DNA from: Cyanidioschyzon merolae
Lineage: Eukaryota
Strand: one strand, 5' to 3'
DNA: 64,000 nucleotides
NCBI GenBank assembly: GCA_000091205.1
Contig: AP006499.2
The position numbers and the translations under genes are program-made. Below are positions 2-49,750 of the stretch, piece after piece; within the stretch, counting starts at the first letter, position 1, and each line of letters starts with the position of its first letter. The notes below the pieces were generated by a model. The model had not been told where the DNA came from and searched no databases. It worked only from the letters and a program-made list of their open reading frames with translations.

Positions 2-3000
2 TCATTCCTAGACTATCTCTACAGGGAACAGCACCTTCGGGGTCCTTTCCTGGTTGTCGCGCCTCTATCCACATTGGGACATTGGAAGCGAGAGTTTGAA
101 ACCTGGACTCACATGAATGCAATCGTCTTCCACGGCAACGTCAGAGCGCGTGATGTAATTCTGCAGTATGAATGGACCTATGCGGGCATGAGCGTCAGAT
201 CAGGCCTTTTTAAGTGGCATGTTCTCATTACGACGTATGAGATTATCTTGCAAGAAGCTAATCGCCTGCGGGGAATACCCTGGGCTGTCATCGTCGTGGA
301 CGAAGCGCACCGACTGAAGAACCGACAGTCCAAGCTGTTCGACGAGCTGCTTGGCTTCCGTTCCGAACATCGGGTACTGCTCACCGGAACGCCGCTCCAG
401 AACAATTCGCTGGAGCTCTTCTCGCTGCTCCATTTTCTAGAGCCAGCAAAATTCCCGAACGAGAAAGAGTTCCAACAAGCCTACGGAGATATTCGTGACG
501 CCGAGGCTGTCGAGAACCTGAAAGCGTTACTGCGACCGTATCTCCTGCGCCGGATGAAGGAGGATGTTGAGAAAGCGATACCGCCCAAGGAAGAGACGCT
601 CATAAGTGTCGAGTTAACTCGAATTCAAAAGCAGTGGTATCGAGCGCTGTACGAGCAGAACTTTGCTTTCCTCGAACAAGGCGGCAAGCGCAATAATGTT
701 GGTAATCTGCGCAACATTGTGATGGAGCTTCGCAAGTGTTGCAACCATCCGTATCTCATTCGTGGTGTCGAGGAGATCGAAACACAATCACTCGCTGCCT
801 TAGGTGAAGATGCACTGATGCGACACTTGGTGGAAGCATCTGGGAAGCTGGTGCTTGTCGACAAGTTGCTGCCTGTACTGCGCGAAAAAGGGCATCGCGT
901 GCTTATCTTCTCGCAAATGATTCGCGTTTTGGATATACTGGAGGACTATCTCCACTGGCGGGGATATAAGTTTGAACGACTGGATGGCCGGGTCCGCGGA
1001 AACGATCGCCAGCAGTCCATTGATCGCTTCCAAAAGGACCCGGAAAATTTCGTGTTCCTGCTCTGCACTCGTGCTGGTGGACAGGGCATCAATCTAACCG
1101 TTGCCGACACTGTGATTATTTTTGATAGTGACTGGAATCCGCAAAATGATGTACAAGCACAGGCGCGCTGTCATCGTATCGGGCAAGAACGCGACGTGAA
1201 AGTATATCGCCTCATTACGCGCGGCACGTACGAGGAAGAGATGTTCGATCGAGCGAGCAAAAAGCTCGGACTCGACCAAGCAGTGCTGCAGAACATGGGT
1301 GTCGACCAGGGCGGCAGCGGCAACATGCTCTCCACCATGGGCCGCGATGATATCAATCGCCTCTTACGACGTGGTGCCTATGATGTATTTAACGAAGACG
1401 ACTCGGCAGCTGACGCATTCACTGCTGAAAATATAGAGAATATCATGGCGCGACGTACCAAGACGATCAAGACTGGTGGCGCAGGCGACGTTGGACCGTC
1501 AGCGTTTTCCAAGGCAACTTTCACGGCGGATGCTGATGGGATGTTTGGCGATGAAACTTGGCTGAATGACAAAGAATTCTGGAAGAAACTGATGCCACTA
1601 GCGGCCTCTGCACCGAACCCCGATATCATCTATGAACCGCGTCGCCGGCGACAAGTTCAGCGCTTCCAGCCGGGCGAAAACTCTGATGAGGAGAGCGGCG
1701 AACACGAGTCCGACAGCGATGAAGCCGACTTGTCCGAGGACAAACTCGGACCCGATGGTCGGAAACTCTGGAACAAGTCCGAGCGACATCGATTTCATCG
1801 GGCGATGCTCACTTATGGCTACGGAGAGTGGGAACGGATTGCCCAGGCCATGGCCAGGGCCCAAAAAAGTGCCAATCAACGGTCTGTGTTTGAGGTTCAA
1901 CGCGCTGCTCGCAGCTGGTTGCGGCTACTTGCGGAGCACACTGCTGCCGCGCTGGTTGCTGGCGATGCCGCGGATGCCACGCAACAGGAGCGTCTCGCCC
2001 AGGAGCGCCTCGTGAAGCTTTGCAACGAGAAGCGCGTGCTGCAAGCTGCCTTTGAACCCTGGATCGATGAGAACACGCAACAACCTGTCGATGAATCGTT
2101 CACTGAACCAGTCTTCACTGAAGATAGCTACCTCGATGCAATGGAACGGAACGGGTACAACTGGATTGAACGTCTCGAATGCATCGAAGACATCAAAGAT
2201 CTGGTTCGAAACGGTGACGTTGACGGTGAGATTCCCTCGATCACCGCCAGTGGCATCTATGTGATGCCCGACTGGTGGGACGCCGAGTTCGATCGAGCCC
2301 TGATTCTGGGCACCCACAGGCACGGGTACGGCCAGTACGATGATATGAGGCGGGATCCGGATCTGCACTTTTTCGGACGACTGGCGCCTTTGCCGCAGCC
2401 GGAGCCTGGCAATGGGAACGCAGCCGAGGACGGCGACGCGAGGCTCGCCGAATGGACCGCGCTGGACCAAAGCTACCGTGAAAAGGCCGCGTCTTTGGGA
2501 CTCGACGCGGAACAGCTACGAGCACGCGAGATGCCGACCCTACATATACTGAATACGCGACTGAAGAAGCTGCTTAAGGCATTCCAGCGCCTACGACGGC
2601 GACAAGATCGTCGACGGAGCCAACTGGAACAGGCCGAAGAACGTGCGCGTGCTCGTGAGGAGCAACAGTTAGCACGCCGACGACAACGCGAGGCGTTTGA
2701 ACGCGAACGATCGGCTCGCTTTGAGGTTCAGGCACAACGCTGGTCCAAGCGTGAAAAGCACGACTTTGGACGTCTTCTTGGACGTCTCGGCGGCGTGGTC
2801 TATGACGCGGATGGGCGTATTGACTGGTCCGTTTACAAGGAGCGCTGCCAGCTTTCACGCAAGTTCGACTACAACCTCGAGCGCATGTACATTGAGATGT
2901 TGGCCATGGCTCGGGAGAGTTTTCGACGTACCGGTGACGATGCGCTCGCAAAGGCCCTCGATGAACCCATCGAGTATGCGCTGCAGTGGCGGGCCAGTCA

Positions 3001-4855
3001 GCATGAGTCGCGCCTCGCGGAGATGCAGCGACTGAGCCGCGAGAGCAGCGACGCTGCCACTCGATTAGCTGCGCTCGAGGAGTGCCTTCGAGCGCCCCAA
3101 CTGGAAGGTTTTCCACCGACTGAACTCGAGGAATTGCGCACCCTGTTTATTCTCTCTCGCCGTTTCGTAGAACGCGTGCGTGTCTTGCACTTTATCCGCG
3201 TCGTCGCTGCACCACTGCTACAAAACCCGGAACTCTGTTCACATCTGATCGAGAACATACCGCCGCCTCGGTCGGACACACTGCCCTCCTGGTGGCGTGT
3301 CGCTGAGGGCCACGACTTGGCGCTCCTGCGCGGCGTCATTCGCTACGGCTTCGACACCGCCCCGCTAGCACTGGACCCGTCGCTCCCGTTTCTGCCGATA
3401 TGCTCGGATTTGGCGCAGCGAGCGAGCACCGCTGAACGTGCCCCCGAAGACGGTGACCTCAGCACCGCAGAAACAGAAACACGATCCACAAACAACGAAA
3501 ACGACATCGTTGCTATGTTTGCCAAACACCGCGGTGTCTTTCTGCGTGCACGCATCGCCGCTGAGGTGCTCGTTTACGGACGTATCGAGCGCGTGCATGC
3601 AAGCGCATCGTCGGGATCCGTGAAGCCCGATGCCCTGCCCCCGCAGGTGCCACCGCTGCCGATGGACACGTCATCGATGATCACGCATGCAGCGGGCACG
3701 CTTGGCAGCTTACGTGTCTATGCGACGGCCTCGGGGGAGCCGATCTCCAGCGAGGGTGGCGATGATTTCGAGCCTGTTCCCCTGGAGCTCGTTACCGTGG
3801 ATATGTTGCAGACATTCAAGCAGTTGAAGAAGCGAGCATCTGGGGTCGTCGATGTATCGAGTTTACCAGAACAAGTAGTGAGCCTTGGTCGCTTGCTCCA
3901 GAGACAAATGATCCGCGAAGAGACCATGTCAGGGAGCACGGGGCTTGAGCACCGATCTTCTGCTCCTGCTGCTGCTGCTGCTGCTGCTGCGTCGCTGGAC
4001 ATGGTGACAGCGTCGGCTGGATCGAGTGGGAAAAACGCCTCGTTGGTGCCGAGCCTCGCCACGGCAACTGCGGAGCGTTGCGGGCATACCGGTGACACGG
4101 AGACGAATCCCGTGCCTGTGGCGACGGGTCAGCGTGCGGTTGTGCCTGCAGCGGCGGCAGCGGGATCGACAGGTCACGGATCGGCGAGTCAGCCGCAGGT
4201 ACGCAGGTCGCAGCTGCACAAAGTCGCTCGCGATGAACACGGGAACGTTCGGTTGCCGATCCAGATCGGGGTGGTCCTACGGATCGAATCCCTCGGGCAC
4301 ATTGATCCACGAGAGAGTTTCCATAACGAGCGAGCGATCTACCCAGTCGGGTATCGATCGGTGCGCACGTACACGAGTTGCGTCGATGTGAATCGCTCAA
4401 CACAGTATGTATCGGAAATTCTGGATCGAGATGGACATCCGTGGTTCCGGGTCACTTGTGCGGACATGCCGGAGGAGCCGTTCGAGGACAAGTCGCCGAG
4501 CGGATGTTGGTCTCAGATCATGCGAATCATTCGAGAGCGAACCCCGTTGGATAGACGACGCGTTCATGCCACGGTTAGCGGTCCAGAGTATTTCGGACTG
4601 ACACAGCCGATCGTCGAAGAGCTTTTGCAGTCCCTTCCAGGGGCCGCACAACTCAAGAACTACAATTTTAAGCGGTTTCTTTCTCCGGAAAAGGCGGAAT
4701 CTGAGGAATCGCTCCATCCCCTGGGCGCAGCGACGGATTCACCGGCAGCGGGTACAGCGCAAGAGCAGTTGCGAGCGGTTGAGCGCGCGAAGACCATGGC
4801 AGATCCGGTTCGTATCAGACTCTGCCTAGAGCCGATGGAAACAAACCCCGACTGA
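2..4855 (+). CDS. CHD-family SNF2 chromatin-remodelling ATPase (5' end cut by window edge); helicase ATP-binding and helicase-C domains, SANT/SLIDE-like region, poly-Ala tract, C-terminal FYRN/FYRC-like module
   Basis: The reading frame stays open back to nt 2; the upstream translation (..GPFLVVAPLSTLGHW) is SNF2 motif I/Ia, so the N-terminus, including any chromodomains, lies outside the window. DEAH box VVDEAHRLKN, LLTGTPLQNN and helicase-C QAQARCHRIGQ are present. WNKSERHRFHRAMLTYGYGEWERI is SANT-like. The C-terminal FHNERAIYPVGYRSVRTY...DGHPWF...SPSGCWSQI...EYFGLT...LPG matches the FYRN/FYRC pattern of MLL/trithorax. Confidence 0.85.
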   Translation, partial: SFLDYLYREQHLRGPFLVVAPLSTLGHWKREFETWTHMNAIVFHGNVRARDVILQYEWTYAGMSVRSGLFKWHVLITTYEIILQEANRLRGIPWAVIVVDEAHRLKNRQSKLFDELLGFRSEHRVLLTGTPLQNNSLELFSLLHFLEPAKFPNEKEFQQAYGDIRDAEAVENLKALLRPYLLRRMKEDVEKAIPPKEETLISVELTRIQKQWYRALYEQNFAFLEQGGKRNNVGNLRNIVMELRKCCNHPYLIRGVEEIETQSLAALGEDALMRHLVEASGKLVLVDKLLPVLREKGHRVLIFSQMIRVLDILEDYLHWRGYKFERLDGRVRGNDRQQSIDRFQKDPENFVFLLCTRAGGQGINLTVADTVIIFDSDWNPQNDVQAQARCHRIGQERDVKVYRLITRGTYEEEMFDRASKKLGLDQAVLQNMGVDQGGSGNMLSTMGRDDINRLLRRGAYDVFNEDDSAADAFTAENIENIMARRTKTIKTGGAGDVGPSAFSKATFTADADGMFGDETWLNDKEFWKKLMPLAASAPNPDIIYEPRRRRQVQRFQPGENSDEESGEHESDSDEADLSEDKLGPDGRKLWNKSERHRFHRAMLTYGYGEWERIAQAMARAQKSANQRSVFEVQRAARSWLRLLAEHTAAALVAGDAADATQQERLAQERLVKLCNEKRVLQAAFEPWIDENTQQPVDESFTEPVFTEDSYLDAMERNGYNWIERLECIEDIKDLVRNGDVDGEIPSITASGIYVMPDWWDAEFDRALILGTHRHGYGQYDDMRRDPDLHFFGRLAPLPQPEPGNGNAAEDGDARLAEWTALDQSYREKAASLGLDAEQLRAREMPTLHILNTRLKKLLKAFQRLRRRQDRRRSQLEQAEERARAREEQQLARRRQREAFERERSARFEVQAQRWSKREKHDFGRLLGRLGGVVYDADGRIDWSVYKERCQLSRKFDYNLERMYIEMLAMARESFRRTGDDALAKALDEPIEYALQWRASQHESRLAEMQRLSRESSDAATRLAALEECLRAPQLEGFPPTELEELRTLFILSRRFVERVRVLHFIRVVAAPLLQNPELCSHLIENIPPPRSDTLPSWWRVAEGHDLALLRGVIRYGFDTAPLALDPSLPFLPICSDLAQRASTAERAPEDGDLSTAETETRSTNNENDIVAMFAKHRGVFLRARIAAEVLVYGRIERVHASASSGSVKPDALPPQVPPLPMDTSSMITHAAGTLGSLRVYATASGEPISSEGGDDFEPVPLELVTVDMLQTFKQLKKRASGVVDVSSLPEQVVSLGRLLQRQMIREETMSGSTGLEHRSSAPAAAAAAAASLDMVTASAGSSGKNASLVPSLATATAERCGHTGDTETNPVPVATGQRAVVPAAAAAGSTGHGSASQPQVRRSQLHKVARDEHGNVRLPIQIGVVLRIESLGHIDPRESFHNERAIYPVGYRSVRTYTSCVDVNRSTQYVSEILDRDGHPWFRVTCADMPEEPFEDKSPSGCWSQIMRIIRERTPLDRRRVHATVSGPEYFGLTQPIVEELLQSLPGAAQLKNYNFKRFLSPEKAESEESLHPLGAATDSPAAGTAQEQLRAVERAKTMADPVRIRLCLEPMETNPD
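3962..3990 (+). repeat. (GCT)n trinucleotide microsatellite inside the CHD CDS, encoding a poly-Ala run (APAAAAAAAAS)
   Basis: Direct read: gctcctgctgctgctgctgctgctgctgcg. Confidence 0.9.
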
Positions 4856-6154
4856 TGGATGGAGATGAGCGGTTTAGAAGCATCGGATCGCAGAGGATAT
4901 GGTCCGGAATCAGGATTTTGGTTGAGGCTTTGAGCACTGCGCTGCACGAGTACGGTGTTGCGACAAAGCGTGCACCCTCGTGCATAGCGAGCATTCATGA
5001 ATCTCAGGTTGCGGCCGTGTGCATCGCCAGCGTCTTTCGCTCCAGACGCAGACAGGTGGAGCACCACCAGCACCACCGCTACCGCTGCGTGAATCACCAG
5101 CACCGGCACCAGCAGTGCCTGTCATCATGATCGTGAACGAGTTGCAAACCGTGCGGCAATCATGCAGCATGGATACCCATGCGGACAACGCTTTGTTCTG
5201 CGCATGATCGCTCCAAAGTTGCTTTTTATGATGGCGCCCCAGTCGACAAACACAGAAACGCGCACGGCCCAGGTTGTCCATGTCATGCGCAAATCACCCT
5301 GCAAATGGTCTGCGCTTACCTCTTCGTCAGGTCCACGTTCCACGAAACCTTAAACGCTTGCTTTTACGCGCAAGGCATGAGAAACATCAAAATCCGGTTC
5401 GATGGGACGCTTCGGGATCAGGGCAGCATCCAAAGCGTCAACAGCGCCAGTTTCGATCCGATGGAAAGCGTGTTTCCCGAGGAACTTTCACCTGAAGACA
5501 GCCTGTATGAAGCAAAGCGCAAGAAAGGCCGCCAAGTGTTATATTTTCCGGTACAACGATTGAATTTTGCGACGCTATCCTGACTGGTGCTAGTCGTCCG
5601 CTGACCGAGTATTTACGCCATGAACTCCCAAACGATCACGTATGTCTTGAACGCTCACAACGTTGCAGTGGGTTGCAAACTACTGGGAGCCGCCCTGGAA
5701 GCACGCGCCTTTCGTAGACGTCCCGCAGGTCGTTAGAGGTACACAGGAACCGCACGCGGTTGGTGCTGTCCAGCCTGACGGCAAAGAACCCCGGATACCT
5801 GCGGTATTCGTGCGTGATGGGCAACAACGCCACCGTTTCAGGTAAACATGCTCACTCCGGCTGCTCTGCGTGACAGCAGACAGACTCGAAAGAACAGCTC
5901 ACTGCACTGCGGCATCTGACGCCTTACCGGCGCTCGCGGTAACGCGGAGTTTGACAAGTTCGACATAGTGGCGTACTAGAGCATTCAGGCCACAGTCCGC
6001 TTGATTGGAAACTCAACCTTTCCAAGCAAGCGGGACGTTCAACCACCGTATACGAACGAAAAGCGTTTCGAGCCCCAGGTCTGTGGCAGCACGTTGCGGT
6101 TGGTGCAGGTCGGCGTGACCGTCGCCCGTGCCGTCGGAACGCAAAACAGGTGGA

Positions 6155-6193
6155 GCTGCTGCTGCTGCTGCTGCTGCTGCCGCTACTGCTGCC
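6155..6193. repeat. (GCT)n microsatellite, intergenic
   Basis: Direct read: gctgctgctgctgctgctgctgccgctactgctgccg. Confidence 0.9.
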
Positions 6194-6544
6194 GTTGTCA
6201 GTTCGAAGATGGTGTACGGCACGGCGTGCCGGTGAACGATATAGCCGAGAATTTCCGGGCCTGGCTTCGCTCCCAGAAGCAGGGTGCGAATGCGAAACGT
6301 GGAAGTGTTTCCAGGAGATACTGCGAGATGCTGGCGCTTATGGAGAGATAGAAACAGGGGCTTTCCGGGTCAAAGGGAGCAATCGTTCCGTTTTTGTGCA
6401 TATGGACATGAAGTACGTGCAGGAATACTATTTTCGGAGAGGCTTTTATGACCTGAATAGCAAGGTTTTAAGGGTGGCTGGTCGCTTTTCTTCTGGAAAC
6501 CGCTGCCATGATTCATGGAGACCAAGGGATACCCGACGCTTGAG

Positions 6545-7925
6545 TCGACACCCATGAAGAACGACAATGTCATGGGTGCGCTCCGCGAGCTCGTACGCAC
6601 ACGCTCAAGTTCTGGTCTCTTGCGAATGCGATCAAGTCTCTGGGGTTTATCTCAGCGACTGCTTCCTGTTCCTGCCGCGTACTTCCGGCTTCACAGGCAC
6701 CGTTCTCTTCTGTCGCTCCAGATTCGGTGTCAGCAGTCGAAGGGTGTTGACGGCAGTGTGCGAGTCCCAACTGTTTCTCGGCCTCGGGCTGGTGTCAACG
6801 AATGCAATGCGCACTCGCGGTCGCTGCGATCTACGCATCACTTGCCATGTTCGTCTTCTTATTGTGCAGCCTCAGTGCACGTCCTTCGCAGCAGTAACGC
6901 TTGACTCTGGGCAGGTGTTTCCGTACCGTCCATCGCACCGTTTTCTCCGAGTCCTGCCTTCTGGGTCACCAGCGCTAGTCGCATCGCTCGCTACAAGCGC
7001 TGGACGGGTCCAGGCGGTTACCTCTGATACCAACCTGCATTGGCGCGCCCGCCGCTGCACCCTACGCTCATGAGCTTCACCTAGAGTGACCAGCTCGGCG
7101 AATTCGCTTGCTTCTGCGTACGAAAGCGAATGCATACGCTGTTGCGTTCGGTCAAGGACTGTGGAGCGCGATGTTGTCCATGATGAAACAAGCACCGCAA
7201 GGAATACCCTGCGGGCGAAACGAGTCTACGAATTCTGATCCGTCCACGCGCCTTTCGTGCAACGCGTCGACACCAGCTCGACTGGAAGCGCTCGCTACGA
7301 TGACTCGAGTCCGAGTCCGGGTCCGAGTCCGAGACCCCTCAACAGGTAAACGGAAGCGTCGGGCACCCCCGGGGTCGTATCCCGTGAGCGATACCGTGCT
7401 GCTGTGGAGTCTCGTTGCGTCGATAGCCACGGAGGAAGGATGATTTGTCTTCCAAGCGGAACTCAATATTGGACATGACATCGTCTGCGGGCCGTCGGCA
7501 GGAGCTTGTGATCAAGCCGTCATGGCGTATCGTAGAGTGTTTTGCATCGTTCCTCTGGCGTTGCGGACTGCTGCGCCCACGAGTTGCCATGAAGCAGCTG
7601 AATCGTGAGCTTGAAGCACGCGTGACTGGAGCGTGCGTCTCGTCATGCGAGGTGAAGAGCCGAGGCATGCTCGTTTGAACCGGATAAAGAAATCTGTTAT
7701 TTTGCATACGCTAATTCGAGGAGGTCGCGACTCATCTTGATTCTGGTGTCGCAGCGAATGCAACCGGTTGAGCGTCGACGGAGCCGCACCGGAACGTTCA
7801 CCGAGAATCCTGAAACTACTGGTGAATCTGGAAACCCCTATTGGGTGAATCTGAGTGTCGAGGTTGCAAATCTGGAAAACGGTTGGAAAAAATCGAAAGG
7901 CAGGAGCAGTCGACTAGTGCAGTAT
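6545..7925. repeat. Left arm of a large inverted repeat (~1.38 kb), reverse-complement of 11615-13004
   Basis: Identical ORF translations appear on opposite strands (6567..7073+ equals 12475..12981-; 7339..7707- equals 11828..12196+; 7737..8066+ matches 11613..11798-). Spot-checked nucleotide stretches are identical apart from a few SNPs and a hexamer-repeat length difference. Both outer ends fall at a GTCGAC. Confidence 0.9.
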
Positions 7926-9963
7926 TCTATTTTCGTTGGGCACTGGTTGAGACAGCAGCTGCAAGTTGCGAAAGAATGCGCGGTGCCAGACATCTTGGAA
8001 TGTAGTGAAATCCTCAACAGTAATTGCGGAAGAAGCGCTCTATTGCTTGGATATACACGTGAGTGACGGCCTTGCCGCTCGGGTTCAGGTCGTAGGTCAA
8101 CGGTTGCATACAGTCTCTACAGTGAAGCATTAGAGCAACTTCGCGAAGAGCATTGACGGTGTATGGTTCAGTTTTTTTTTGCGTACAGAGAGGAAATGGA
8201 ATAAAGTTGACAGATATGATATAGCCCGACGCAATATCAATCTGCACGTACTTCGTAACTACGAATTGCGAGTCGAGCAACAAGGCTCGTTTTCAACTGT
8301 TCAACATAGGTGAAGAGCAATGGTTCATTGTGGGTGTGGAAACGGGCTTGAAGAGTATCATGCCCGTTGTTTTGCCTCTGAGTCACGGATACGGGGCCAA
8401 AGGCTTACACTGAACAAGACGAGGTTGCCCAGCTTTGCAGGGCTCTGTACTTTCGAGAGTCGTACATGACACACGGTACGCGACGTACCAACAGGTAACA
8501 GGATACTGTTAGAATAATCTCGATGCTCTGAGCACTGCACCCGGCAGACGAGATGCTTTGTGCGCTTCATTCGAAGGTTGCATCAGCGTCCGAGAATCCT
8601 GATGCAGGCGAACATTGGCAGGATTGCATGAAACCACGCTGGGGGCGCCAACGGTTTCGGTTGTACGGTGGCGAGGACGGTGCATACGTCAACTTCATCA
8701 ATGCGCTGGAGAAGGCGAAGACCGATACGTCGCATCGTTTGGCGGTTGAATTCTGTGGCACTGGACGTGCTGTAGAGCACACACGCTGCACTCCTGCACC
8801 ATCGAAGAGAGTGGACTGCTGGCGGAGGAAGCGATTCGTCACGTTTCCCATCGATTAGTTCAGGACAATATACATGCATCACAAGCACAGGCGTGCGCTC
8901 AGACTGGTCCAGAAGAAGATAGTGAAACAGAGCCGGATACACAAGGTGATGTGCGGTAAGCTAGCCGAACGTCAGATAGCGAGATAATCGAAGTTGTGAG
9001 GTTTGCTGTGGTTTGTTTCCGACCGCATCCATGTGCGCGGAAGCGCCTTCCGCACCGAGCCTTGAACGCCTCGTTCAACAAGCGGAAATATCCTGTACTT
9101 TCGGATCGTCCAGCGCTGCTCTGTCGAGCGAATATTCGAGTGAACCGTTTAGAACTCAGTGTGAGCATTGTGCTCAAACGCTGACGACTTCCAATGAAAA
9201 ACATAGCAAACGCCAAGAGGGAGGGCATCGCATTCCTGCCTCGAACAAGGCACTGGGATGGTACGGGAACGCGATCCGGCATGGCTTCAGTGCCTTACGT
9301 ATACATAGGGAGAGAGTTTCTCGGGCTTTTGTTCGACGATACTGGTATTCTATTATCCGACGTTACTGGGCAAGTCCAAATTCAAAATGCAACATTTCAT
9401 GGCAACGCTACAGCACGTGCCAGCGTCAGATCAACAGCGAATCGCCTCGGCAACGGAGACCAACCCCTGGGTAGTTGTATCATAAGCGCAAACGCTCCTC
9501 GCTAACGTACAGTGCCGAGAGCAGGTACTAGGATTCACCCATTGTGGTAGATCATCTCCCTTGGACTCCAAATTCGCGATACCGGAACCCATTGCATACG
9601 TACGTGCAGAAAAAGCAGATGATTTCCCTAGCACCAGGACATTTTTTCATGATTCATATATTCCAATATGCGACCTTTCTGCGGCACAGCGGAAAGTAGC
9701 TCAAGTTTCTCGCTCTTGTGAGAACGCAGTAAAGCTGATCGGTATGTAATGCGATTTTTTGCAATCCTGTAAATCGACCAAGAACTTGGGGTTGTCTTCC
9801 ATCGCAACGGTTGGCACCCTGTGCGAGAAACGATGCCGCCGCCTCCGTCGACGTCACTGGAATGCAACCTCGGGTCTTCAAACGTGCGTTTCGGGTCGCC
9901 AAACGCGAAGCCGTGTTCACAAAGACTACCAAGGCACTCGAACATCAGTGCAGCATCCGCGAA

Positions 9964-11310
9964 TCACTGTGCGTCGCGTCTTTCAAAGGCCGCTATGAAA
10001 TACGCAGAACGTGACGAGAAACCTGTAACGGGAGCTGTGGCTATTTCTGCAGTGCTTGCGCCTATCCTTGGACCAGAGACTCCAAGCGGGGTTCGTGTCT
10101 GCGCTGCCTGCGCGGGAATACGAACCGCTGCAGAGCAGCCAGCCAAACCACGATGCGGCCACGCGGGGAAGACAGTGTCCAAGCGCCAACGACTTGCGAT
10201 GAACGGATCGGCGAGCAGCGCCTCGACAACTTTTTCGTTTTCCTCAATCAGTACGCTACACGTGGAGTAGACAACCCGCCGGACTCGAGGAAAAGCCACC
10301 AGCGCATGCCGAAGTAGCTGAATCTGAACGGCAGCCAGTCGACCGATTCTGGACCAGTTATAGCGCTCCCCGACGGGCCGGTAACGCACTAAACCAGACC
10401 CTGAGCACGACGGATCGACTAGGATCGCTGACGCTTGCGCAAGAGCGCCATCATGAGCATCATCGGATACCACTGTTCGAAAGTCCTTCAGATGCATGCG
10501 AATGCTCTGGGTGAATCCTGCGCTGCGAACACGCGATACCATCGCCCGATAACGTTCGGCATCTCTTTCGAATGCATAAACCATGCCACTCTGTTGCAGC
10601 AGATTGGCAAGAAACATGCTTTTATTCCCAGGTGCTGCACATGCATCGATAAGGTGCCAGCCGCGTTGTGGTTGGAGCGCGAGCGCAGCCAGGCACGAAC
10701 CTCTGTCCTGCACGATGAGTAGCCCGCGCTGCACCCACTCATGGCTGAGGAATGCCCCTAGGTCTCCATGGAAACACCAGAAGAGGTCCGGGTATGCAAG
10801 ATCGCGTTCAACGCATCCAGGGAAGGCGCGTTCGACTGCCGCAGGATCCAAACCGCCAAGGACTTGCGGTCGAAACCAGAAAAAGCGATAATCCTCTGTT
10901 TGTTGAAAAGATGGCGGCTCATCGGTGTTCGTCCTGGACCCGCCACAGGACGTTGTTGATGCGCTGAGCAATTTTTTGAGCTTACGAGCGATGAACCCTC
11001 CAGCGCGAAGCAAGTTACCGCGGCCAAAACAGCGTTCGTAGACCACAACTCGAGCTAGCCAGTGGTTCGTGGGACGTCTCAACCAGTCGTGCCACCAGCG
11101 CCGTTCATCTTTTGGTTGCTGCTGGATCGCACTCTGCAGTATCCGCTCGAGTTCGTGGCTCCAGCGGTGTGTCTCGGTTGCCAAGGCGTACACGCGTGGC
11201 CACTCGGTACCCAGACGCGTTCGTTCGCGGTACAGAAACGTGCGCAGCGAAGCGGATGACGTTTCCGTCAGCGTTAAAACCTGCGCAACGCTTCTATAGA
11301 CGGGGTGCAT
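9964..11310 (-). CDS. NOL1/NOP2/Sun-family RNA (cytosine-C5)-methyltransferase
   Basis: SAM-binding motif DACAAPGNKS, motif IV VDPSCSGSG (the catalytic Cys of the PCS motif) and motif VI TCS (VVYSTCSV) are present. It is the only long ORF between the inverted-repeat arms. Confidence 0.8.
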   Translation of the reverse strand: MHPVYRSVAQVLTLTETSSASLRTFLYRERTRLGTEWPRVYALATETHRWSHELERILQSAIQQQPKDERRWWHDWLRRPTNHWLARVVVYERCFGRGNLLRAGGFIARKLKKLLSASTTSCGGSRTNTDEPPSFQQTEDYRFFWFRPQVLGGLDPAAVERAFPGCVERDLAYPDLFWCFHGDLGAFLSHEWVQRGLLIVQDRGSCLAALALQPQRGWHLIDACAAPGNKSMFLANLLQQSGMVYAFERDAERYRAMVSRVRSAGFTQSIRMHLKDFRTVVSDDAHDGALAQASAILVDPSCSGSGLVRYRPVGERYNWSRIGRLAAVQIQLLRHALVAFPRVRRVVYSTCSVLIEENEKVVEALLADPFIASRWRLDTVFPAWPHRGLAGCSAAVRIPAQAAQTRTPLGVSGPRIGASTAEIATAPVTGFSSRSAYFIAAFERRDAQ

Positions 11311-11614
11311 GAACCGTTCATCACTCGGGTAAGTGTAGTGACTGCCCCCAGGCGGTGCTCAACGTGCCCGACTCGACTCGCACACTAGACAAGTTTTGCA
11401 CCCGCGGCGCGCTGCAGACAGCGGGCTTGTGTACTCGGCACACTGCGGATACCCGAGTGGAAAAGGAAGATGCTCGACAGAACACTCCTATCAGAGAGCG
11501 ATTGGGTTGTAGGATTGCTTTGTCGGTGTAGCGGTCGACGAGGAAGATAATGCAAATAGGTACGGATATGCCACTGCGCGATGCTACACTAGTGTCAGAT
11601 CAACATGGAATACT

Positions 11615-13004
11615 ACACTAGTCGACTGCTCCTGCCTTTCGATTTTTTCCAACCGTTTTCCAGATTTGCAACCTCGACGTTCAGATTCAACCAATAGGGG
11701 TTTCCAGATTCACCAGTAGTTTCAGGATTCTCGGTGAACGTTCCGGTGCGGCTCCGTCGACGCTCAACCGGTTGCATTCGCTGCGACACCAGAATCAAGA
11801 TGAGTCGCGACCTCCTCGAATTAGCGTATGCAAAATAACAGATTTCTTTATCCGGTTCAAACGAGCATGCCTCGGCTCTTCACCTCGCATGACGAGACGC
11901 ACGCTCCAGTCACGCGTGCTTCAAGCTCACGATTCAGCTGCTTCATGGCAACTCGTGGGCGCAGCAGTCCGCAACGCCAGAGGAACGATGCAAAACACTC
12001 TACGATACGCCATGACGGCTTGATCACAAGCTCCTGCCGACGGCCCGCAGACGATGTCATGTCCAATATTGAGTTCCGCTTGGAAGACAAATCATCCTTC
12101 CTCCGTGGCTATCGACGCAACGAGACTCCACAGCAGCACGGTTTCGCTCACGGGATACGACCCCGGGGGTGCCCGACGCTTCCGTTTACCTGTTGAGGGG
12201 TCTCGGACTCGGTCTCGGTCTCGGACTCGGTCTCGGACTCGAGTCATCGTAGCGAGCGCTTCCAGTCGAGCTGGTGTCGACGCGTTGCACGAAAGGCGCG
12301 TGGACGGATCAGAATTCGTAGACTCGTTTCGCCCGCAGGGTATTCCTTGCGGTGCTTGTTTCATCATGGACAACATCGCGCTCCACAAGTCCTTGACCGA
12401 ACGCAACAGCGTATGCATTCGCTTTCGTACGCAGAAGCAAGCGAATTCGCCGAGCTGGTCACTCTAGGTGAAGCTCATGAGCGTAGGGTGCAGCGGCGGG
12501 CGCGCCAATGCAGGTTGGTATCAGAGGTCACCGCCTGGACCCGTCCAGCGCTTGTAGCGAGCGATGCGACTAGCGCTGGTGACCCAGAAGGCAGGACTCG
12601 GAGAAAACGGTGCGATGGACGGTACGGAAACACCTGCCCAGAGTCAAGCGTTACTGCTGCGAAGGACGTGCACTGAGGCTGCACAATAAGAAGACGAACA
12701 TGGCAAGTGATGCGTAGATCGCAGCGACCGCGAGTGCGCATTGCATTCGTTGACACCAGCCCGAGGCCGAGAAACAGTTGGGACTCGCACACTGCCGTCA
12801 ACACCCTTCGACTGCTGACACCGAATCTGGAGCGACAGAAGAGAACGGTGCCTGTGAAGCCGGAAGTACGCGGCAGGAACAGGAAGCAGTCGCTGAGATA
12901 AACCCCAGAGACTTGATCGCATTCGCAAGAGACCAGAACTTGAGCGTGTGCGTACGAGCTCGCGGAGCGCACCCATGACATTGTCGTTCTTCATGGGTGT
13001 CGAC
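11615..13004. repeat. Right arm of the large inverted repeat (~1.39 kb), reverse-complement of 6545-7925
   Basis: As for the left arm. This arm carries an expanded (gactcg/gtctcg)n hexamer microsatellite, ctcggactcggtctcggtctcggactcggtctcggactcgag, where the left arm has a shorter version. Confidence 0.9.
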
Positions 13005-13159
13005 AATCGTTGTTTCGATAATCATGTACAAATTGTATACTTAGCCCGATAATATCCCATTTATGTCCATCACCATCTCGATGACGCACTGTCGTCTCTA
13101 CCGGAATCCAATCCGTGTTGACACGACGTTTGTGAACACCCCCGGTTCCTTCCTGAAGC

Positions 13160-14617
13160 ATGCAAAACCGCAGCGATGTTTCACAGATCCCCGAAGACAG
13201 GCGCGTGCGTTATGTCGTTCAGAAGCAGACCGAAATTTTCGATGGAAAGCGCCTCCGTCGGGCGATGGTTCGGAAGACAGTGGACTTGCAGGCGCCTGCA
13301 GCTCGCTGGTTGCTGGACCGTACCTGGCAGCAAGACAGTCGTCAGGGACCGCCGCTGGAGCCCTCAGCTGAATACATCTATCGGCTGCAACCACCCTGTG
13401 CTGCGGCGTTTCGAGAACGGCCGATAACCAACGCCTGTACGCACTTTGTGCAGCACGCGCAGAACAAGCAAAAGTGCGGGATAAACGCCTGCTGCTGGAC
13501 GCCGGAAGGCCGTCGACTCATCACGGGCGCTACGAGCGGCGAGTTTACACTCTGGAATGGTTGGACTTTTAACTTTGAGACGATACTATTGGCCCATAAT
13601 CTGGCGGTGCGCAATATTACCTGGAGCCATGACGGCAAGTTCATGGTCTCAACCGACCAGTCTGGCATTGTAAAGTACTGGCAGAGCAACCTCAACCATC
13701 TGAAGGTATTTCGAGCGCATCAAGAGACAATACGGGACTTGGCCATAGCCCCAACGGATCAGAAACTAGCGACTTGTTCGGACGACCAGACGATCCGGGT
13801 GTTCGACTTTGAGTCGCCCGCTCGAGCGGGTGAGATCCAGGGCTCCCCCGAGCGCATCCTGCGCGGACACGGCTGGGATGTGCGCTCTGTGGACTGGCAC
13901 CCAACGCGCGGCCTCCTTGCGTCTGGTAGCAAGGACTCTCTGATCAAATTGTGGGACCCCAAATCAGGCAAGTGCCTAACGACGATCCATGCGCATAAGA
14001 ATGCAGTTGTGAAAGTGCGGTGGAACCCCAGCAATGCGAATTACCTGCTGAGCGGCTCGCGTGACCAAACCGTCAAGTTGATCGATATTCGGATGATGCG
14101 ATCTGTGCAGAGTTTTCATGGACATCGTCGCGAGGTAACGACGCTGGCCTGGCATCCCATCCAGGAGGATACTTTCGTGTCGGCTGGCTACGACGGTTCG
14201 CTGTTCTTCTGGGTGCTTGGCGATCCTGAGCCGGCGGCAGTCATCCCGAACGCCCATGCGACCCAGGTTTGGGACCTCTCTTGGCATCCGTTGGGGCACG
14301 TGCTCGTAAGCTCCGGCAACGATACGTACACCCGGTTCTGGACTCGGTCGCGGCCAGGAGACGGCATGCGCGATCGCTACCAGCGCAGCAGTTGTCGCTG
14401 GGAGCACGTCAAGCTGTACGCGACTGAAGATGATCCGCTTGTGCGCGAGGTTGAAGAGCTTGAAGCCCTTCAAGGCAACGGCGGGGTCGATGGCTTCGGG
14501 GAATCTCTCCTCGACCGACACGTTATGATGGTGAAGCGCCAGCGGACGACTGCTGCTCAGCGACCTCCTCCAGGTCTGGAATACGTCCAGAATGACGTGC
14601 AGATGACCAAGAGTTGA
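13160..14617 (+). CDS. WD40-repeat polyadenylation factor, WDR33/Pfs2 ortholog (CPSF complex)
   Basis: CCWTPEGRRLITGATSGEFTLWNGWTFNFETIL, VKYWQSNLNHLKVFRAHQETIRD, WHPTRGLLASGSKDSLIKLWDP and WHPLGHVLVSSGNDTYTRFWTR are collinear with the WDR33 N-terminal WD propeller. Confidence 0.85.
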   Translation: MQNRSDVSQIPEDRRVRYVVQKQTEIFDGKRLRRAMVRKTVDLQAPAARWLLDRTWQQDSRQGPPLEPSAEYIYRLQPPCAAAFRERPITNACTHFVQHAQNKQKCGINACCWTPEGRRLITGATSGEFTLWNGWTFNFETILLAHNLAVRNITWSHDGKFMVSTDQSGIVKYWQSNLNHLKVFRAHQETIRDLAIAPTDQKLATCSDDQTIRVFDFESPARAGEIQGSPERILRGHGWDVRSVDWHPTRGLLASGSKDSLIKLWDPKSGKCLTTIHAHKNAVVKVRWNPSNANYLLSGSRDQTVKLIDIRMMRSVQSFHGHRREVTTLAWHPIQEDTFVSAGYDGSLFFWVLGDPEPAAVIPNAHATQVWDLSWHPLGHVLVSSGNDTYTRFWTRSRPGDGMRDRYQRSSCRWEHVKLYATEDDPLVREVEELEALQGNGGVDGFGESLLDRHVMMVKRQRTTAAQRPPPGLEYVQNDVQMTKS

Positions 14618-15389: not shown

Positions 15390-16815
15390 CCAGGCGCAGG
15401 CGCCTGCCAGTCTTTTTTGGCCGTCCGCCTGCTATCGGGTTCAGCTTCACCCTGTACACGTCGAGCCGGAGAGGCTGCCTTATAAACTTGGATCGCGTCA
15501 GCTCCGCGGATCTCGTCTTCAGCACCGCTCATCGTCTGATATTAACAGCAGCGTTGTGATCCCGGTTCACGAACTTGTTGCATGCAGTGCTGGTAGTGGG
15601 GAACACCAATGCAGGGATTGCCGGAACTTGCGCCCTCCGTGGTAATACATTCTCGACATCGTCCCGTCGAGCGAGTACCTTTTCTCGTGTATCTCCACTG
15701 TTCTTCTTCATCACTTGCTCTTCTTCGCATGGTGGTCTTAGAGAAGAGTATTTTTTCGTTTTTTTTTCGCTGCAGGCGACGATAATCGCCCTCCAGGATT
15801 CTCGACTTCCATGTCCATAACTTTCCCGTAGATTTTTTATTTCTTCATATGAACGCACTTCTTGATGCTCTTAGACAAGGGCCATCGCGGAGTGAGAAGG
15901 ACCTGCGCAAGAAAGAAGAATTGTGCCCGTGGGCTAAACGTACGGAGAACGCTTCGGCAATTCGCCCAGTGGAGCGATCATGACGTTCCACCCTGGAAAG
16001 TACTCCTTTGATGGTGCTTAACCACCGAGCGTACGTAGGAATGAGAAGCAGCTCTATCCCGGTAGAACTGGCATAAAGATCGAATGCAAATGAATGGTGA
16101 AATGCCACGTTGTCGAACAGAAGAATGTCGGCGGAGCTGCAAGGGAAAAGTCTTCAATGATTCAACAAATTGGGTGCTTTTGTTGCAAGAGCCTTCTCAA
16201 CGAGCGAAACCGTGGCCGGCAAATGAATCCTCTGCAACTAGAAGCTGAAATGATGATATGATCTTTCTCTTGCATGTCTTTTCTAATTACAACGAGCGCC
16301 CTGCTCGGCGAATACCCATATACGCTCCGACCGTTTCGTCTGAAGGACTTTTCAACGATTGAAAAAAACAAACCGATGTCTCTGTGATGCATACCGACCG
16401 CAGCGTTCCAGGAACGCTATCGTTGCGTGAACTAGGACGCTCGTTTTGGCGACTGTATTCCAGGGCTTTCAACGCGACACGAACAAGCTGTTGAGAAACA
16501 GCGACACCCGCGATGGCTACGATCGTCGCTTTTGCTTTTCATACGGCAATCAACGAGTCGCTCTCTACCATGGACTGCAAGAACGCTTCGACAATACCAG
16601 TTTTTGGCGCGGAACGCATCTACTTGTTTCTTTCACTGTTCCTCAACCATCTGAGTACAGTTGGATGACTGAACTGAATGAGGAATACAGTCCTCCTTGT
16701 ACTGTTCAGTACATAATATATATCCTACAGACGATTCGTCTACGATCTAACCAGTACATTGCGTCGTGATTTCAGTGCCCCGCTTACTGAACGCGGCATC
16801 GAGCGTGGAACGAAT
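15390..16815 (-). mobile_element. Copy A of a degenerate TnpB/Fanzor-like (IS605 OrfB-type RNA-guided nuclease) element; coding sense on the minus strand, disrupted by frameshifts and stops
   Basis: The minus-strand ORF ends ...CNKFVNRDHNAAVNIRR*, which is the RuvC-III D-x-D-x-NAA-x-NI signature. An adjacent frame gives a Cys-rich CRECITTEGASSGNPCIGVPHYQHC zinc-finger remnant. The region is about 75% identical at the nucleotide level to 24495-25865 across its whole length. Confidence 0.6.
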
Positions 16816-25865: not shown

Positions 25866-27728
25866 CTGAAAGCCCAGAGGGGCTCTGCGCGAACCTGCCG
25901 CTTGCCCATTGGATCCGTTCGTTCCCGCGGCGGTGCTCAGCGCTCCTGCGCCGCATGGTATTCGGCATGCTGGCGCCTGACACACTAAGTGCGACGTGGC
26001 TGTTGGGGAGTCGACGCCACTCTCAGCGCAGGGCCTTGAACAAGCACCAGGTCGTAGAGAGTCTGCCCGCCTTGAAGCAGTGCGCCACAGACTCATTATT
26101 TCAGATCCAAATGGGACACTGGACTGAGCGCTCTGCTCTTGTCTTTCCATTTATTTTCCGAACTTTGTTTGAAGAAGTACAGCATCAACATTCGAGCTGC
26201 AGCGATCAGGGCTTTCGGACTCGTACGTGCGTTTCGGATCCTCAGTCGTGGCCTCGGAGTGGCTCATTCGACGCTTTGGCGCTGGTATTCGATACGTGAC
26301 CCGAATTAGGACGATTCGCGACGCCCGCGACCATGGGTTCCTAACATCATCCAAGTCATTATTTAATTCATACGTAGAAGCCTCCACGCGTCCCCGTTCC
26401 TTATGAATATCATGGACATAGCACGCATTCTTCAAGATTTTGTTTCTTCTGTTTCAAGGCAACGCTTGGGCAGAACGCTTCGCGCCGCTGAATGGACGAG
26501 ACGAAAACGCTCAACGTCGTCACTTGAGGGCCTGGTTCAAGAGTTCATCCTTAAAGTCCGCAGAGCTTTGGGCGGTCAAATAATCGATTCCGTTCGAAAC
26601 GCAGATCCCTCTCTCATTGTGATCATCGACGAAACGTGATGGCATACCAGCTAGAAACCTTTCACGGAACAAACTCCCGGAAACGCCCAGCGCTTCCGTT
26701 TCCATGTTAAAGGGTTTCGGACTCGGACCTGAGTCATCGCAGGGATCGCGTCTAGACGAGAATGCATCAGTGCGATGAACGTAAGGAACGTAAACAGACC
26801 GAAATGTTTAGACTCGTTCTCCAGCCTGGTTCCTCCTCACTGTACTTGTTTCAGCATGCGTGACATCGCGTTCCCGCACATGCTCCGAAGAATGGTACAG
26901 CGCGCACATGCGCAGCGCACAGCGTATTCACGGAAGGAATCGTCTAGAGGAAGCTAGTGATCGTAAGGTACTGCTACGCACGCGGAAACAGAGGAGGAGG
27001 CGGAGCGCATCCGGGCGAGCCTGCATGCACCATGGGGCGGCGCTCGTAGGCGACATTGTGGTGGCATATCGGGGCATTTGAAGACACGCTCTTGTGACCG
27101 CTGCGAAGCGCGCACCGCGACTATATGCAGCGAAGATGAATATGGCAAGCGAAGCGTAGATCACAACTGTTGCCTACACACGACATGCATAACCACAACG
27201 ACCGGAAACTGTGAAATCGGGACTTGCACCTCGCCATCAACATCCTTCGGCTGCTGATAACGGAGCTAGAGGAAACAGAGAGAGACCGGTACTTTTAAAA
27301 CCGGATATGAAACGAGGGAAATGGGATGCATTCGCCGACCAGACCCACAAAGGCGGAAACTCATGGCCAAGGGAAAGACACCCAACCTTTTGAGTCTGCC
27401 CCCGATTCGGCTGCGTGTACCCGTTCGATACGATGTTCACATGGTTGTTGCAGTGCAAGCACCTTGTCCAGCAAGTCCAGCCTTCAAGCTCACGCTCCGT
27501 TTTCTCGTGTAAAAGAGGCACGCTTGTTCATACGTGTCGAGGATGAAACCCGCTGGAACGTTGTACCACGGTACCAAGAGCAGCACCAACAACACGAACA
27601 ACAACAAGCCAGTTCATGCGCTCAGCGAATGCTATGGAACCTTTGCCGAACGCGAGGCGCGCTGTGCTGCTGAACGCGATTACAGCAACGATTATCATTG
27701 CTGTGGCTGTCATCAACGCTTCCGCACT

Positions 27729-41495: not shown

Positions 41496-41616
41496 GGCAC
41501 AGGCGATGCAGTCGAACTATGCCACGGACTCGTTCCGCCGGACGTGGCGCGAGGCGCTCAGTCGCCTTTCGCACGGCTGGATTCATTGACATTCGGGGAC
41601 GCACTGAACAACTAAA

Positions 41617-47100: not shown

Positions 47101-48989
47101 GAGGCGCTTTTGCCCTGCACGCGGCGTGCTCGGCACGCACTTGATCGCCGAGCTGATTCAAGCTCCATGCTCAACTGGAGCACATGTCCATGGTTGATGA
47201 AGCGTCCAAGCGTCTATATAGAGGCTCAAGTCGACCGACTGGTCACCGCTGGCAGCTGCATATTCTGAGGAATGCTGCTATGTTCAACTACTTTACGCTA
47301 TGCAATGCTGCAGATTCTCTTGATAAGTATAGCCCCTATTCTTTGAGTAAATTCTGGCTCGGCGTTGTTTTCCCATGAAGCGTTCTATCAAGGAATGGAG
47401 GCGCCCGCCTGACTAGCGTCGGTGCATATACATGCATGGTGTCTGGTTCACTTCATGCAACCTTTACGGGAGCTTTTGCGGAAGAGCAAGTGTGCGCGCC
47501 GAGCTCGCTGCGCGATGACTCTGGTGGAGAAATGATTTGTATGCGCTCACGGCAGGCTCGGCACACGAAGTATCACACGAACTGACGATTATCTCTAAAG
47601 CAAGCTCTGAATAGTCTTAGCTGACGGCATCTGTAGGTCTGGCGCGGACTGATGGCTGCGCCTCTTGACGCACATAACAATCGCGTCCTGAGGGATCCTT
47701 ATCCAGACTATATCCGTGTCAGATTAAAACGGAACACTAAATTGTGCGCTCTGCTCTTGCCTTTCATGCTTTCCGAACTTTTCTAGATCTACATCCTCGA
47801 CATTTCATGAGCAGCAATACGGGCATTCAGATTCACTGGTGATTGCGAGATTCTCAAGTGTCTCTTTGGAGAAGCTCCATGGACACGTTGCCGCTGGGTT
47901 TCTTTACCAAAACGGAATCAAGACTACACGCGACGAGCTCGAACAAAGCTTCGTAAAATAGGTGGTATCCATATCCAAGTCATGCGTGGAAGCCTCCACT
48001 CTTCCTGTTTACTCCCGTTTGGTACGCTTAAATAACGCGTTCTGCACGTTTTCCACCTCTGTGTCATGCCAAGTCGTTGGCGCAGCCAATGCGCGCCGCT
48101 GGATCGACGAAGAAGAAAACTCTAAGTTGGCCCATGACGAGTTGCGCTCAACGCCAAGCCCATATTTCACTAAACTTGTCTCACGAATTCGTCGATTCCT
48201 CTCCATAGACAAATCCTCCTCTCGTTGTTAACGACGAGAAGCCAGCATTCGACAGCAGCATGGTACCTCTGACCGTAAACGCTCTCAGATGTTTCCGTCC
48301 CTTCTGTTTGTATGGAAAACGGTAATGGGCTCGGACGTTGTTCATCGGAGCGGTCGTTTTCCGCGGAGAGTGCGTCACCGCTTCGCAGGGAAGGAACGTG
48401 GAACCATGGAAATTTCTCATCTTGTTCTCCAGTTTGGATTTTCTTTCTCGGACTTTTTTCATGATCGACAAGTTCACCGTCCATAGATCCACTGTCGAAT
48501 AGAACAGCATTCGCTTGTGCGTGCAGCGGACGAAGGACTCGCCGAGGGCATCGCCCAGAAGAGGCCTGTGAATATGAGGTACGGCACTTGGCATGGAACC
48601 AGAGGAAGGCAACGACACGAGCTTTCAGTACCCCTCAAGCGCATCTACCGCTTGATGAAAGAAGCATTCTCACGCGTCAGGACGGCCCTTAAAGAACAAA
48701 GTATGGTGGACGTATGAGAACGTCAGTAAACAGCCAAGTGCCGCCCTTTCCAGGGCACACCAGGATGTTTACAACGGAGATAAAAGTTGGCAAGCGAAAC
48801 GTTGATTACAACCACCGCCTGTGCATAAAGTGCAATGAAACCATCCGACAGTAGGGAAATCGGTACTTGAACACTGCCGTCAACTTCCTGCGACGACGAC
48901 TGACACCGGACCTTGAGGGAACGGAGAGATCGGCGGCTTCCAAGCCCTGGATACAACAGCGGAAAAGAGTGTATTCGAGTCAAAAGCTC

Positions 48990-49750
48990 CCAAAGGGTGA
49001 CAACGATGATCTTACACAGAGACTATAACTTAAGAGTATACAAATCCGAGATAGATACCCTGTTCCCTTTCTTTCGGACTCGTTGTCGAGAATCCGTCGA
49101 AGGGGTGACAACGGTGATCTTACACAGAGACCATAACTTAAGAGTATATAAATCCGAGATAGATACCCTGTTCCCTTTCTTTCGGACTCGTTGTCGAGGA
49201 TCCGTCGAAGGGGTGACAACGGTGATCTTACACAGAGACCATAACTTAAGAGTGTACAAATCCGAGATAGATACCCTGTTCCCTTTCTTTCGGACTCGTT
49301 GTCGAGAATCCGTCGAAGGGGTGACAACGGTGATCTTACACAGAGACCATAACTTAAGAGTATATAAATCCGAGATAGATGCCCTGTTCCCTTTCTTTCG
49401 GACTCGTTGTCGAGGATCCGTCGAAGGGGTGACAACGGTGATCTTACACAGAGACCATAACTTAAGAGTATATAAATCCGAGATAGATGCCCTGTTCCCT
49501 TTCTTTCGGACTCGTTGTCGAGGATCCGTCGAAGGGGTGACAACGGTGATCTTACACAGAGACCATAACTTAAGAGTATACAAATCCGAGATAGATACCC
49601 TGTTCCCTTTCTTTCGGACTCGTTATCGAGAATCCGTCGAAGGGGTGACAACGGTGATCTTACACAGAGACTATAACTTAAGAGTATATAAATCCGAGAT
49701 AGATACCCTGTTCCCTTTCTTTCGGACTCGTTGTCGAGAATCCGTCGCTC
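48990..49750. repeat. Tandem minisatellite, 108-bp unit x 7
   Basis: The unit gtgacaacggtgatcttacacagagaccataacttaagagtatataaatccgagatagataccctgttccctttctttcggactcgttgtcgagaatccgtcgaagggg starts at 48997, 49105, 49213, 49321, 49429, 49537 and 49645. Because 108 is 36 codons, open frames run through on both strands (VTTVILHRDHNLRVYKSEIDTLFPFFRTRCRESVEG). Confidence 0.9.

Follow-up and report, generated by a model that had tools for sequence, protein, structure and literature searches.

The window analysed here is a 64,000-nucleotide stretch of contig AP006499.2 of Cyanidioschyzon merolae. In its left part lies a gene for an NSUN5/Rcm1-type rRNA cytosine-C5 methyltransferase (9964..11310, minus strand; hereafter NSUN5), bracketed by two near-identical inverted repeats of about 1.4 kb. 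The left arm of the repeat occupies 6544..7947 and the right arm 11588..13004; the unique central segment between them (7948..11587) measures 3640 bp. The gene is an intact open reading frame (ORF) of 448 amino acids that matches Pfam Methyltr_RsmB-F at 1.6e-24, finds its best matches among NSUN5-type proteins and is identical to C. merolae 10D BAM82110.1 at 446 of 448 residues. The absence of introns from the genes and the GC content of 55% also agree with the nuclear genome of C. merolae. Its ATG is separated from the inner end of the right arm by 278 bp. A previous reading of the bare sequence (the original prediction) had singled out a unique middle with an NSUN-family gene on the minus strand and an AT-richer, gene-poor stretch with a T9 run. 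Both are present: the gene-poor part has a GC content of 0.508, compared to 0.553 for the whole window, and the T9 run lies at 8172-8180. The left neighbour of the repeat is the gene for a CHD/SNF2-type chromatin remodeller with FYRN/FYRC domains (SNF2; 74..4855, plus strand), whose ORF is cut by the window start and which is complete in a public contig (L045), where it encodes 2014 amino acids. On the right, a WD40 protein gene (13160..14617, plus strand) begins with an ATG that lies 156 bp beyond the right arm's outer end.

More than 40 public contigs containing NSUN5 or its neighbours were collected from JGI, ENA and Logan. RNA-like contigs among them place the end of the NSUN5 messenger about 830 nt past the stop codon. 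Non-templated A-runs at 9131-9135 terminate two of these contigs (L033 and L056), and three more (L046, L048 and L050) end within 10 nt, which delimits one or more putative polyadenylation sites at 9131..9142 on the minus strand. NSUN5 is intact and expressed, and the RNA-like contigs show that the arms are transcribed.

The two arms are reverse complements of each other, with an identity of about 99.3%. A repeat search returned three contiguous inverted blocks, which a gapped alignment joins. The core of high identity extends from 6544 to 7927 on the left and from 11608 to 13004 on the right. The remaining 20 nt of the left arm (7928-7947) form a decayed tail in which 12 of 20 positions match, in register, with 11607-11588. 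Thus, the repeat that had been recognised from the letters is real, although the coordinates first assigned to it were a few bases too narrow. Also in keeping with the original prediction, the arms differ by a few single-nucleotide polymorphisms (SNPs) and by the length of a hexamer microsatellite: there are 8-9 substitutions, a 1-bp indel (7160/12388) and a 12-bp indel corresponding to two hexamer units. The microsatellite (GAGTCC/GGACTC; 7306..7333 in the left arm, approximately 12198-12243 in the right) lies within the relic ORF described below, where it encodes RTRT..., and is two units longer in the right arm. No third copy of comparable identity was found by self-BLAST of the 64 kb window.

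The outer edges of the repeat are sharp. Both fall at a GTCGAC (6544-6549 and 12999-13004) and no target-site duplication was found at the repeat edges, as first reported; similarity past either outer edge is at shuffle level only. The hexamer occurs 39 times in the window against 19 expected, with four occurrences in each arm. Since it is so common, its presence at both outer edges is considered a coincidence, or at most a case of microhomology. At the right inner junction, a 10-nt direct repeat, CTACACTAGT, is found at 11584-11593 and again at 11613-11622. Neither an Rfam scan of positions 4800-13300 at E<=1 nor an ARAGORN scan of the window returned known RNA genes; therefore, no known RNA gene is hidden in the arms. 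We found no earlier description of the NSUN5 inverted-repeat locus in the literature.

The arms had been thought to contain only junk-like ORFs. However, a 109-amino-acid ORF of the left arm (7155..7481, minus strand) has the features of a decayed DDE_3-type transposase. It matches Pfam DDE_3 with an E-value of 0.021 (15 bits against a cut-off of 28.6) and carries DE(T)-like and DNxxxH-like motifs (VAIDAT and FIMDNIALHS) about 85 residues apart. The right arm has the counterpart of this ORF at 12054-12467 on the plus strand, as part of the same element. Given the minus-strand orientation of the relic transposase in the left arm, the 5′ end of the element is at the arm's inner edge. An exhaustive HMMER search gathered relatives of the ORF in 18 clusters (best E-value 1.7e-10, 43-49% identity), all of them unannotated ORFs of hot-spring metagenomes. 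Two of the relatives match DDE_3 (7e-6 and 3.6e-4), one matches NCBIfam IS630 (0.0043), and the consensus of the family (FVAIDxT...GYAPxGSR...CFxxDxIAFH) reads like an IS630/Tc1 core. Applying Pfam to stop-masked three-frame translations of the arms gave nothing useful, leaving the 109-amino-acid ORF as the sole source of the DDE_3 hint. A 168-amino-acid ORF of the arm was also considered as a gene; lacking a Pfam domain, and with homologues only in its own cluster, it was treated as non-coding.

Diverged solo copies of the arm element were detected by tblastx at two other places in the window, 26173..27284 (plus strand; approximately 35-50% identical) and 47770..48998 (plus strand). The known copies of the family thus comprise the two arms, these two solo copies, two copies at a second locus described below and the 18 metagenome clusters. 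Judged by these comparisons, each arm appears to be a full-length unit of an old, dispersed family of DNA transposons, the right arm being a second copy in opposite orientation, and the family itself is probably a relic of the IS630/Tc1-mariner (DDE_3) type. The original prediction had allowed for a dispersed repeat occurring twice here by chance. The arm does belong to a dispersed family, but the two arms are 99.3% identical whereas amino acid identity to the other copies is only about 35-50%. C. merolae was reported to contain eight transposase-like elements with weak resemblance to bacterial transposases (Nozaki et al. 2007, PMC1955436), and the arm family probably corresponds to these transposase-related elements. 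Points of likeness to the class II elements of that report and to IS630/Tc1-mariner DDE_3 transposons are a weak, consistent DDE_3/IS630 signature, the unit length of about 1.4 kb and the occurrence of dispersed, decayed copies.

The edges of the repeat recur in independent assemblies. At least seven public contigs of about 3680 nt span exactly the interval 7928-11607, and others end at 6544, precisely the outer edge. In the DNA-type contigs L009/L043, L026/L044 and L035, which run through whole arms, the linkage is the same as in the window; one of them, L035, contains the entire series flank-arm-middle-arm-flank, arranged as in the window. An inverted repeat with identical edges was found in every sampled population or strain of the C. 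merolae lineage. Among the more than 40 contigs, those containing an arm showed no flank besides the four expected junctions. A metagenome scan with an invariant 40-mer of the arm returned two contigs that were already known, and no other arm context or linkage.

Comparison with related species allowed the history of the locus to be examined. The order SNF2(+)-NSUN5(+)-WD40(+)-PreP(+)-HSP90(+), with short spacers, is found in all three outgroup Cyanidiophyceae examined: a Cyanidiococcus-like metagenome-assembled genome (L015-L018), Cyanidiococcus yangmingshanensis (L019) and Cyanidium caldarium (L025). None of the three has an inverted repeat around NSUN5. In Cyanidium caldarium, the order runs on through a proteasome subunit gene and an SBF transporter gene on the minus strand. 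The order in the window matches that of the outgroups through HSP90, the proteasome subunit and SBF(-), and only NSUN5 is reversed. Reversal of the NSUN gene relative to its neighbours, which the original prediction had raised, is therefore upheld by the orthologous loci of three species, in all of which the genes lie on the same strand. The gene orders thus show that the 3.64 kb enclosed by the arms became inverted in the C. merolae lineage and that the breakpoints of this inversion coincide exactly with the repeats. By the same comparison, NSUN5 has been neither captured nor moved, as it occupies its ancestral syntenic position between SNF2 and WD40. When the arms and the non-coding part of the middle segment were compared with the outgroup loci by tblastx and blastn, the only match was to NSUN5; thus, which of the arms is the original one is not identifiable from outgroup sequence.

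Differences among strains bear on how the arms have remained alike. At about nine sites, both arms of the window have one base and both arms of other strains another. Among them are positions 6675, 6731 and 6734, in the stretch 131-190 nt inside the outer edge, in which the arm can be linked reliably to its flank. A further variant, 72 nt from the inner edge (7855-7856), reads GT in the arm on the T9 side and AC in the arm on the NSUN5 side, and it is found in the other arm in contigs L004 and L012. Because the inner parts of the arms stay with their end of the spacer in either orientation, this swap is to be ascribed to conversion and not to flipping. The clustering of arm sequences by strain rather than by side indicates, as far as these site patterns go, gene conversion from arm to arm. 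The degenerate state of the repeat's final 20 nt is consistent with conversion not reaching the edges.

The doubled arrangement has a parallel elsewhere. An element present in contigs L058 and L061 can be aligned colinearly with the arm along essentially the full length of about 1.4 kb, with a nucleotide identity of about 65%, and its ends coincide with those of the arm within about 25 nt. In L058, this related element spans 3650-5042 and the first 133 nt of an inverted partner are on the contig; L061 has the full 1.39 kb partner, at 99.2% identity, next to a different outer flank. At locus 2, a pair of inverted copies of about 1.39 kb encloses two convergent genes in a spacer of 3.5 kb. The inner terminus of the right arm at NSUN5 (GCTAC...TCAGATCAA) is closer to the terminus of the locus-2 element than is that of the left arm. 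Many contigs of 1.2-1.4 kb contain nothing but the ORF of the locus-2 element, which fits a collapsed repeat. As to the spacer genes themselves, one is an ORF of 683 amino acids and the other encodes an NAD-dependent epimerase (L058:1-5042 with L059-L063), and both start some 80-120 bp from the inner ends of the arms. The finding that elements only about 65% alike are doubled, with equal unit extents, at two loci argues that the pairs arose by a transposition-type process respecting the ends of the element, and not by random segmental duplication.

We consider it probable that the NSUN5 structure is a pair of inverted copies of a single dead DNA transposon around a resident gene, with an inversion bounded by the elements and arms that have been homogenised. 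While still active, the element would have inserted twice nearby, in opposite orientations, by local hopping; alternatively, the first step could have been a duplication in the course of aberrant intramolecular transposition. One or more crossovers between the copies would then have turned the NSUN5 segment around, and gene conversion would keep the arms about 99.3% identical while the solo copies decay. The simple recent segmental duplication suggested at first does not account for these data: the edges are common to all sampled strains, the two arms have undergone concerted evolution and their extent is that of a discrete, dispersed element.

Several observations weigh against this interpretation. 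All Pfam and NCBIfam scores of the arm family are under the curated thresholds, a point in which it differs from IS630/Tc1-mariner DDE_3 transposons. No third catalytic residue was found in the relic family, and its profile gave zero matches to PDB sequences at E<=10. Terminal inverted repeats were not found within the arm, nor were clear TA duplications, a TA being present only beside the 5′ terminus of the right arm and of the locus-2 copies. Such absence is expected of a decayed relic, yet lends no positive support. The divergence between arms (about 0.6%) is approximately equal to that between strains (0.4-1.1%); the argument for old age and conversion is therefore drawn from site patterns and element boundaries, and not from a clock. 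In addition, metagenome assemblers may collapse the arms or pop bubbles, exaggerating the apparent concerted evolution. The organism that harbours locus 2 was deduced only from co-occurrence in samples and from eukaryotic gene content. Finally, the crossover is a reconstructed step, and a one-step inversion, coupled to transposition or based on replication, could give an equal end state.

An extension of the transposon-pair interpretation is that the segment still flips, both orientations coexisting through recurrent crossovers between the arms. Ten contigs (L033, L034, L036, L045-L048, L050, L055 and L056) join the SNF2 flank, via an arm, to the 5′ side of NSUN5, that is, in an ancestral-like orientation. 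Conversion between the arms implies that they recombine physically. The spacer of locus 2 is found in both orientations among contigs, L058 and L061 being opposite to L059, L060 and L063. Furthermore, a sexual cycle and proficiency in homologous recombination are both described for C. merolae (PMC13353863); the same source, of 2026, describes a telomere-to-telomere assembly of a Yellowstone strain that is 0.71% diverged from 10D. Against this, the flipped-type contigs look as if derived from RNA, as in a metatranscriptome. The A-runs and shared ends at 9131-9142 mentioned above are found in contigs of this type, and three of the ten begin 60-200 nt upstream of the SNF2 ORF. Poly(A) together with shared transcript-like ends makes the sample series look like metatranscriptomes. 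An assembler can fuse read-through transcripts of SNF2, which enter the left arm, with NSUN5 transcripts, which contain the right arm, as both read from the outer to the inner end. On these grounds, the flipped contigs were downgraded as a sign of polymorphism. The arrangement of the window is matched by every DNA-type contig that extends through an arm (L009, L026 and, extending through both, L035). The arms, at 1.38 kb, exceed short-read inserts and either orientation yields the same assembly graph, so that no short-read contig is decisive at either locus. Present-day flipping is plausible mechanistically, but on balance it seems rather doubtful. As a separate observation, contigs of these JGI/Logan "metagenome" series are unsuitable as evidence of genome structure.

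Whether or not the segment flips, a programmed switch found no support. The 1.4 kb upstream of NSUN5 are arm sequence in either orientation, and the arms differ at about ten positions. With identical arms and the 5′ end of the relic 278 bp upstream of NSUN5 either way, flipping leaves the upstream sequence unchanged. Most likely, the inversion is functionally neutral and no regulatory effect is to be expected.

The structure could also have been made by a rearrangement in which transposons played no part. A single event, involving staggered breaks or a fold-back/microhomology-mediated break-induced replication (MMBIR) template switch, would have produced the second arm and the inversion together, and the likeness to a transposon would be incidental. 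The lack of both target-site duplications and terminal inverted repeats speaks in favour of such an event, as does the location of the outer edges in palindromic GTCGAC sequences; the degenerate 20 nt or so at the left inner end and the direct repeat at the right inner junction are possible junction scars. However, the repeat corresponds to one entire unit of a dispersed family, with a deviation of no more than about 25 nt at either end, a family member about 65% identical is doubled likewise elsewhere, and random pairs of breakpoints are not expected to respect element boundaries twice; nor does GTCGAC carry much weight, being simply common. Because it leaves the element-bounded extents at two loci unexplained, the one-step event is the weaker rival, and we regard it as unlikely.

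A bolder proposal goes beyond the transposon pair at NSUN5 and holds that the relic family repeatedly forms inverted pairs that bracket genes, their 5′ ends pointing inwards near the gene starts, as long-lived flipping modules maintained by conversion that supply identical promoter regions. If this were true, the cassettes of 3.5-3.7 kb would represent a recurrent and possibly selected architecture in a highly streamlined eukaryotic genome rather than two accidents. We give this proposal little credence. Still less probable is a mobile foldback element or composite transposon that captured NSUN5 and inserted here, as was initially entertained. Two inverted copies around cargo do resemble Tn5/Tn10, and the architecture recurs at locus 2. 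However, NSUN5 is the single syntenic orthologue between SNF2 and WD40, as in the three outgroups, the structure has no target-site duplication, only the four expected junctions and no other whole-structure copy were found, and the cargo of locus 2 is unrelated. Finally, although long near-perfect inverted repeats are classic assembly traps and misassembly had been feared, an artefact affecting the second arm or the direction in which the middle segment is placed can be dismissed with near certainty, as the arms differ by SNPs and a 12-bp indel and hence were assembled separately, more than 40 independent JGI, ENA and Logan contigs have the same four junctions, numerous assemblies made independently end at these edges or run across them, and L035 holds the whole element with both flanks.

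Other features of the region are as follows. The gene-poor part of the central segment includes a fragment of a different dispersed relic family (8762..9218), recognised by tblastx, which matches 63380-63833 of the window in opposite orientation at 33-42%. The possibility that the segment marks a centromere, either of the inverted-repeat type of Komagataella phaffii or of the C. merolae type, for which CENH3 binding and a low-GC core of 2-3 kb would be expected, seems very unlikely: the GC content of its core, 0.508, is like that of other intergenic stretches of the window. The mean GC content reported for C. merolae centromeres, 48.4% (bioRxiv 10.1101/096016), is below this value, and these centromeres were reported to have no common pattern. 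In the spacer left of the left arm, a CTG/GCT trinucleotide microsatellite at 6150-6190 is of variable length from strain to strain; it contains the starting points of several contigs, and identity with the window falls at this place.

Further relics are found away from the NSUN5 locus. One pair (15532-16108 and 24512-25265, both on the minus strand) belongs to a repeat (15833-16773 versus 24867-25822) that is 72% identical over about 970 bp. In these copies, the relic of a DDE_3 C-terminus (E=0.0019) is followed immediately downstream by a C-terminal motif that is TnpB/Fanzor-like, NRDxNAAxNIRR (Cas12f1-like_TNB, E=0.021). This pair probably belongs to the Fanzor1 element CMe-1A, which is the WSV486-like repeat present in 253 copies in C. 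merolae. The transposon class of CMe-1A was reported as unknown; the DDE_3 relic next to it is a hint of a Tc1/IS630-type carrier. Two tandem arrays were also noted. One (84 bp x 7, 98% matches; 41616-42200) is contained in a minus-strand ORF devoid of Pfam domains (41419-42729), and the other (108 bp x 7, 97%; 48995-49747) lies in a low-GC stretch with overlapping ORFs on both strands. Solo copies of the arm element and other relics fill spacers that measure a few hundred bp in Cyanidium caldarium. The longer intergenic regions of C. merolae in the window consist for the most part of old transposon debris.

C. merolae is a model alga valued for its simple, repeat-poor genome and for efficient homologous recombination. 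The kilobase-scale palindrome, probably made from a dead transposon and with signs of long-term gene conversion between its arms, shows that even this genome has recombination-active repeats that remodelled local gene order. The structure explains the breaks and chimeras that short-read and transcript assemblies show at the NSUN5 locus, and calls for caution in gene targeting of NSUN5 and in the analysis of fine-scale synteny. Should the segment flip, or such pairs prove common, the locus would provide a compact system for the study of inverted-repeat recombination in a sexual unicellular eukaryote.

Transposon-flanked inversions and palindromes maintained by conversion are well known. The composite transposons Tn5 and Tn10 resemble the present structure in that inverted insertion-sequence copies flank a few kb of unrelated genes; in C. 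merolae, however, the gene between the copies has kept its ancestral place, and there is no sign that the unit has moved. In the yeasts Ogataea polymorpha and Komagataella phaffii, mating-type flip/flop takes place through homologous recombination, the inverted repeats involved being about 2 kb long, and the parallel is that of a eukaryotic chromosomal segment lying between inverted repeats and inverted through this pathway. The yeast inversion shifts genes relative to a silencing region, thereby altering expression, whereas the 1.4 kb upstream of NSUN5 are left unchanged. Inverted repeats homogenised by conversion are also exemplified by the palindromes of the human Y and X chromosomes, by the FLNA-EMD repeats, with their recurrent inversion, and by plastid inverted repeats with flip-flop isomers. 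All of these share with the NSUN5 repeat kilobase arms more than 99% identical, a unique spacer, concerted evolution of the arms and inversion as the expected outcome of a crossover. The C. merolae structure is smaller in scale, its arms derive from a transposon and not from genes, and DNA-type contigs show one orientation. Inversion by ectopic recombination between inverted transposon copies is known from Galileo, at breakpoints in Drosophila buzzatii, and from bacterial inversions flanked by insertion sequences. Unlike those, the C. merolae locus retains no target-site duplications or terminal repeats from which the exchange could be reconstructed, its copies are long dead and yet 99.3% identical, and the segment is only 3.6 kb long, with one housekeeping gene. 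What these systems have in common with the NSUN5 locus is the presence of opposite-oriented copies of one element exactly at both breakpoints of the inverted segment.

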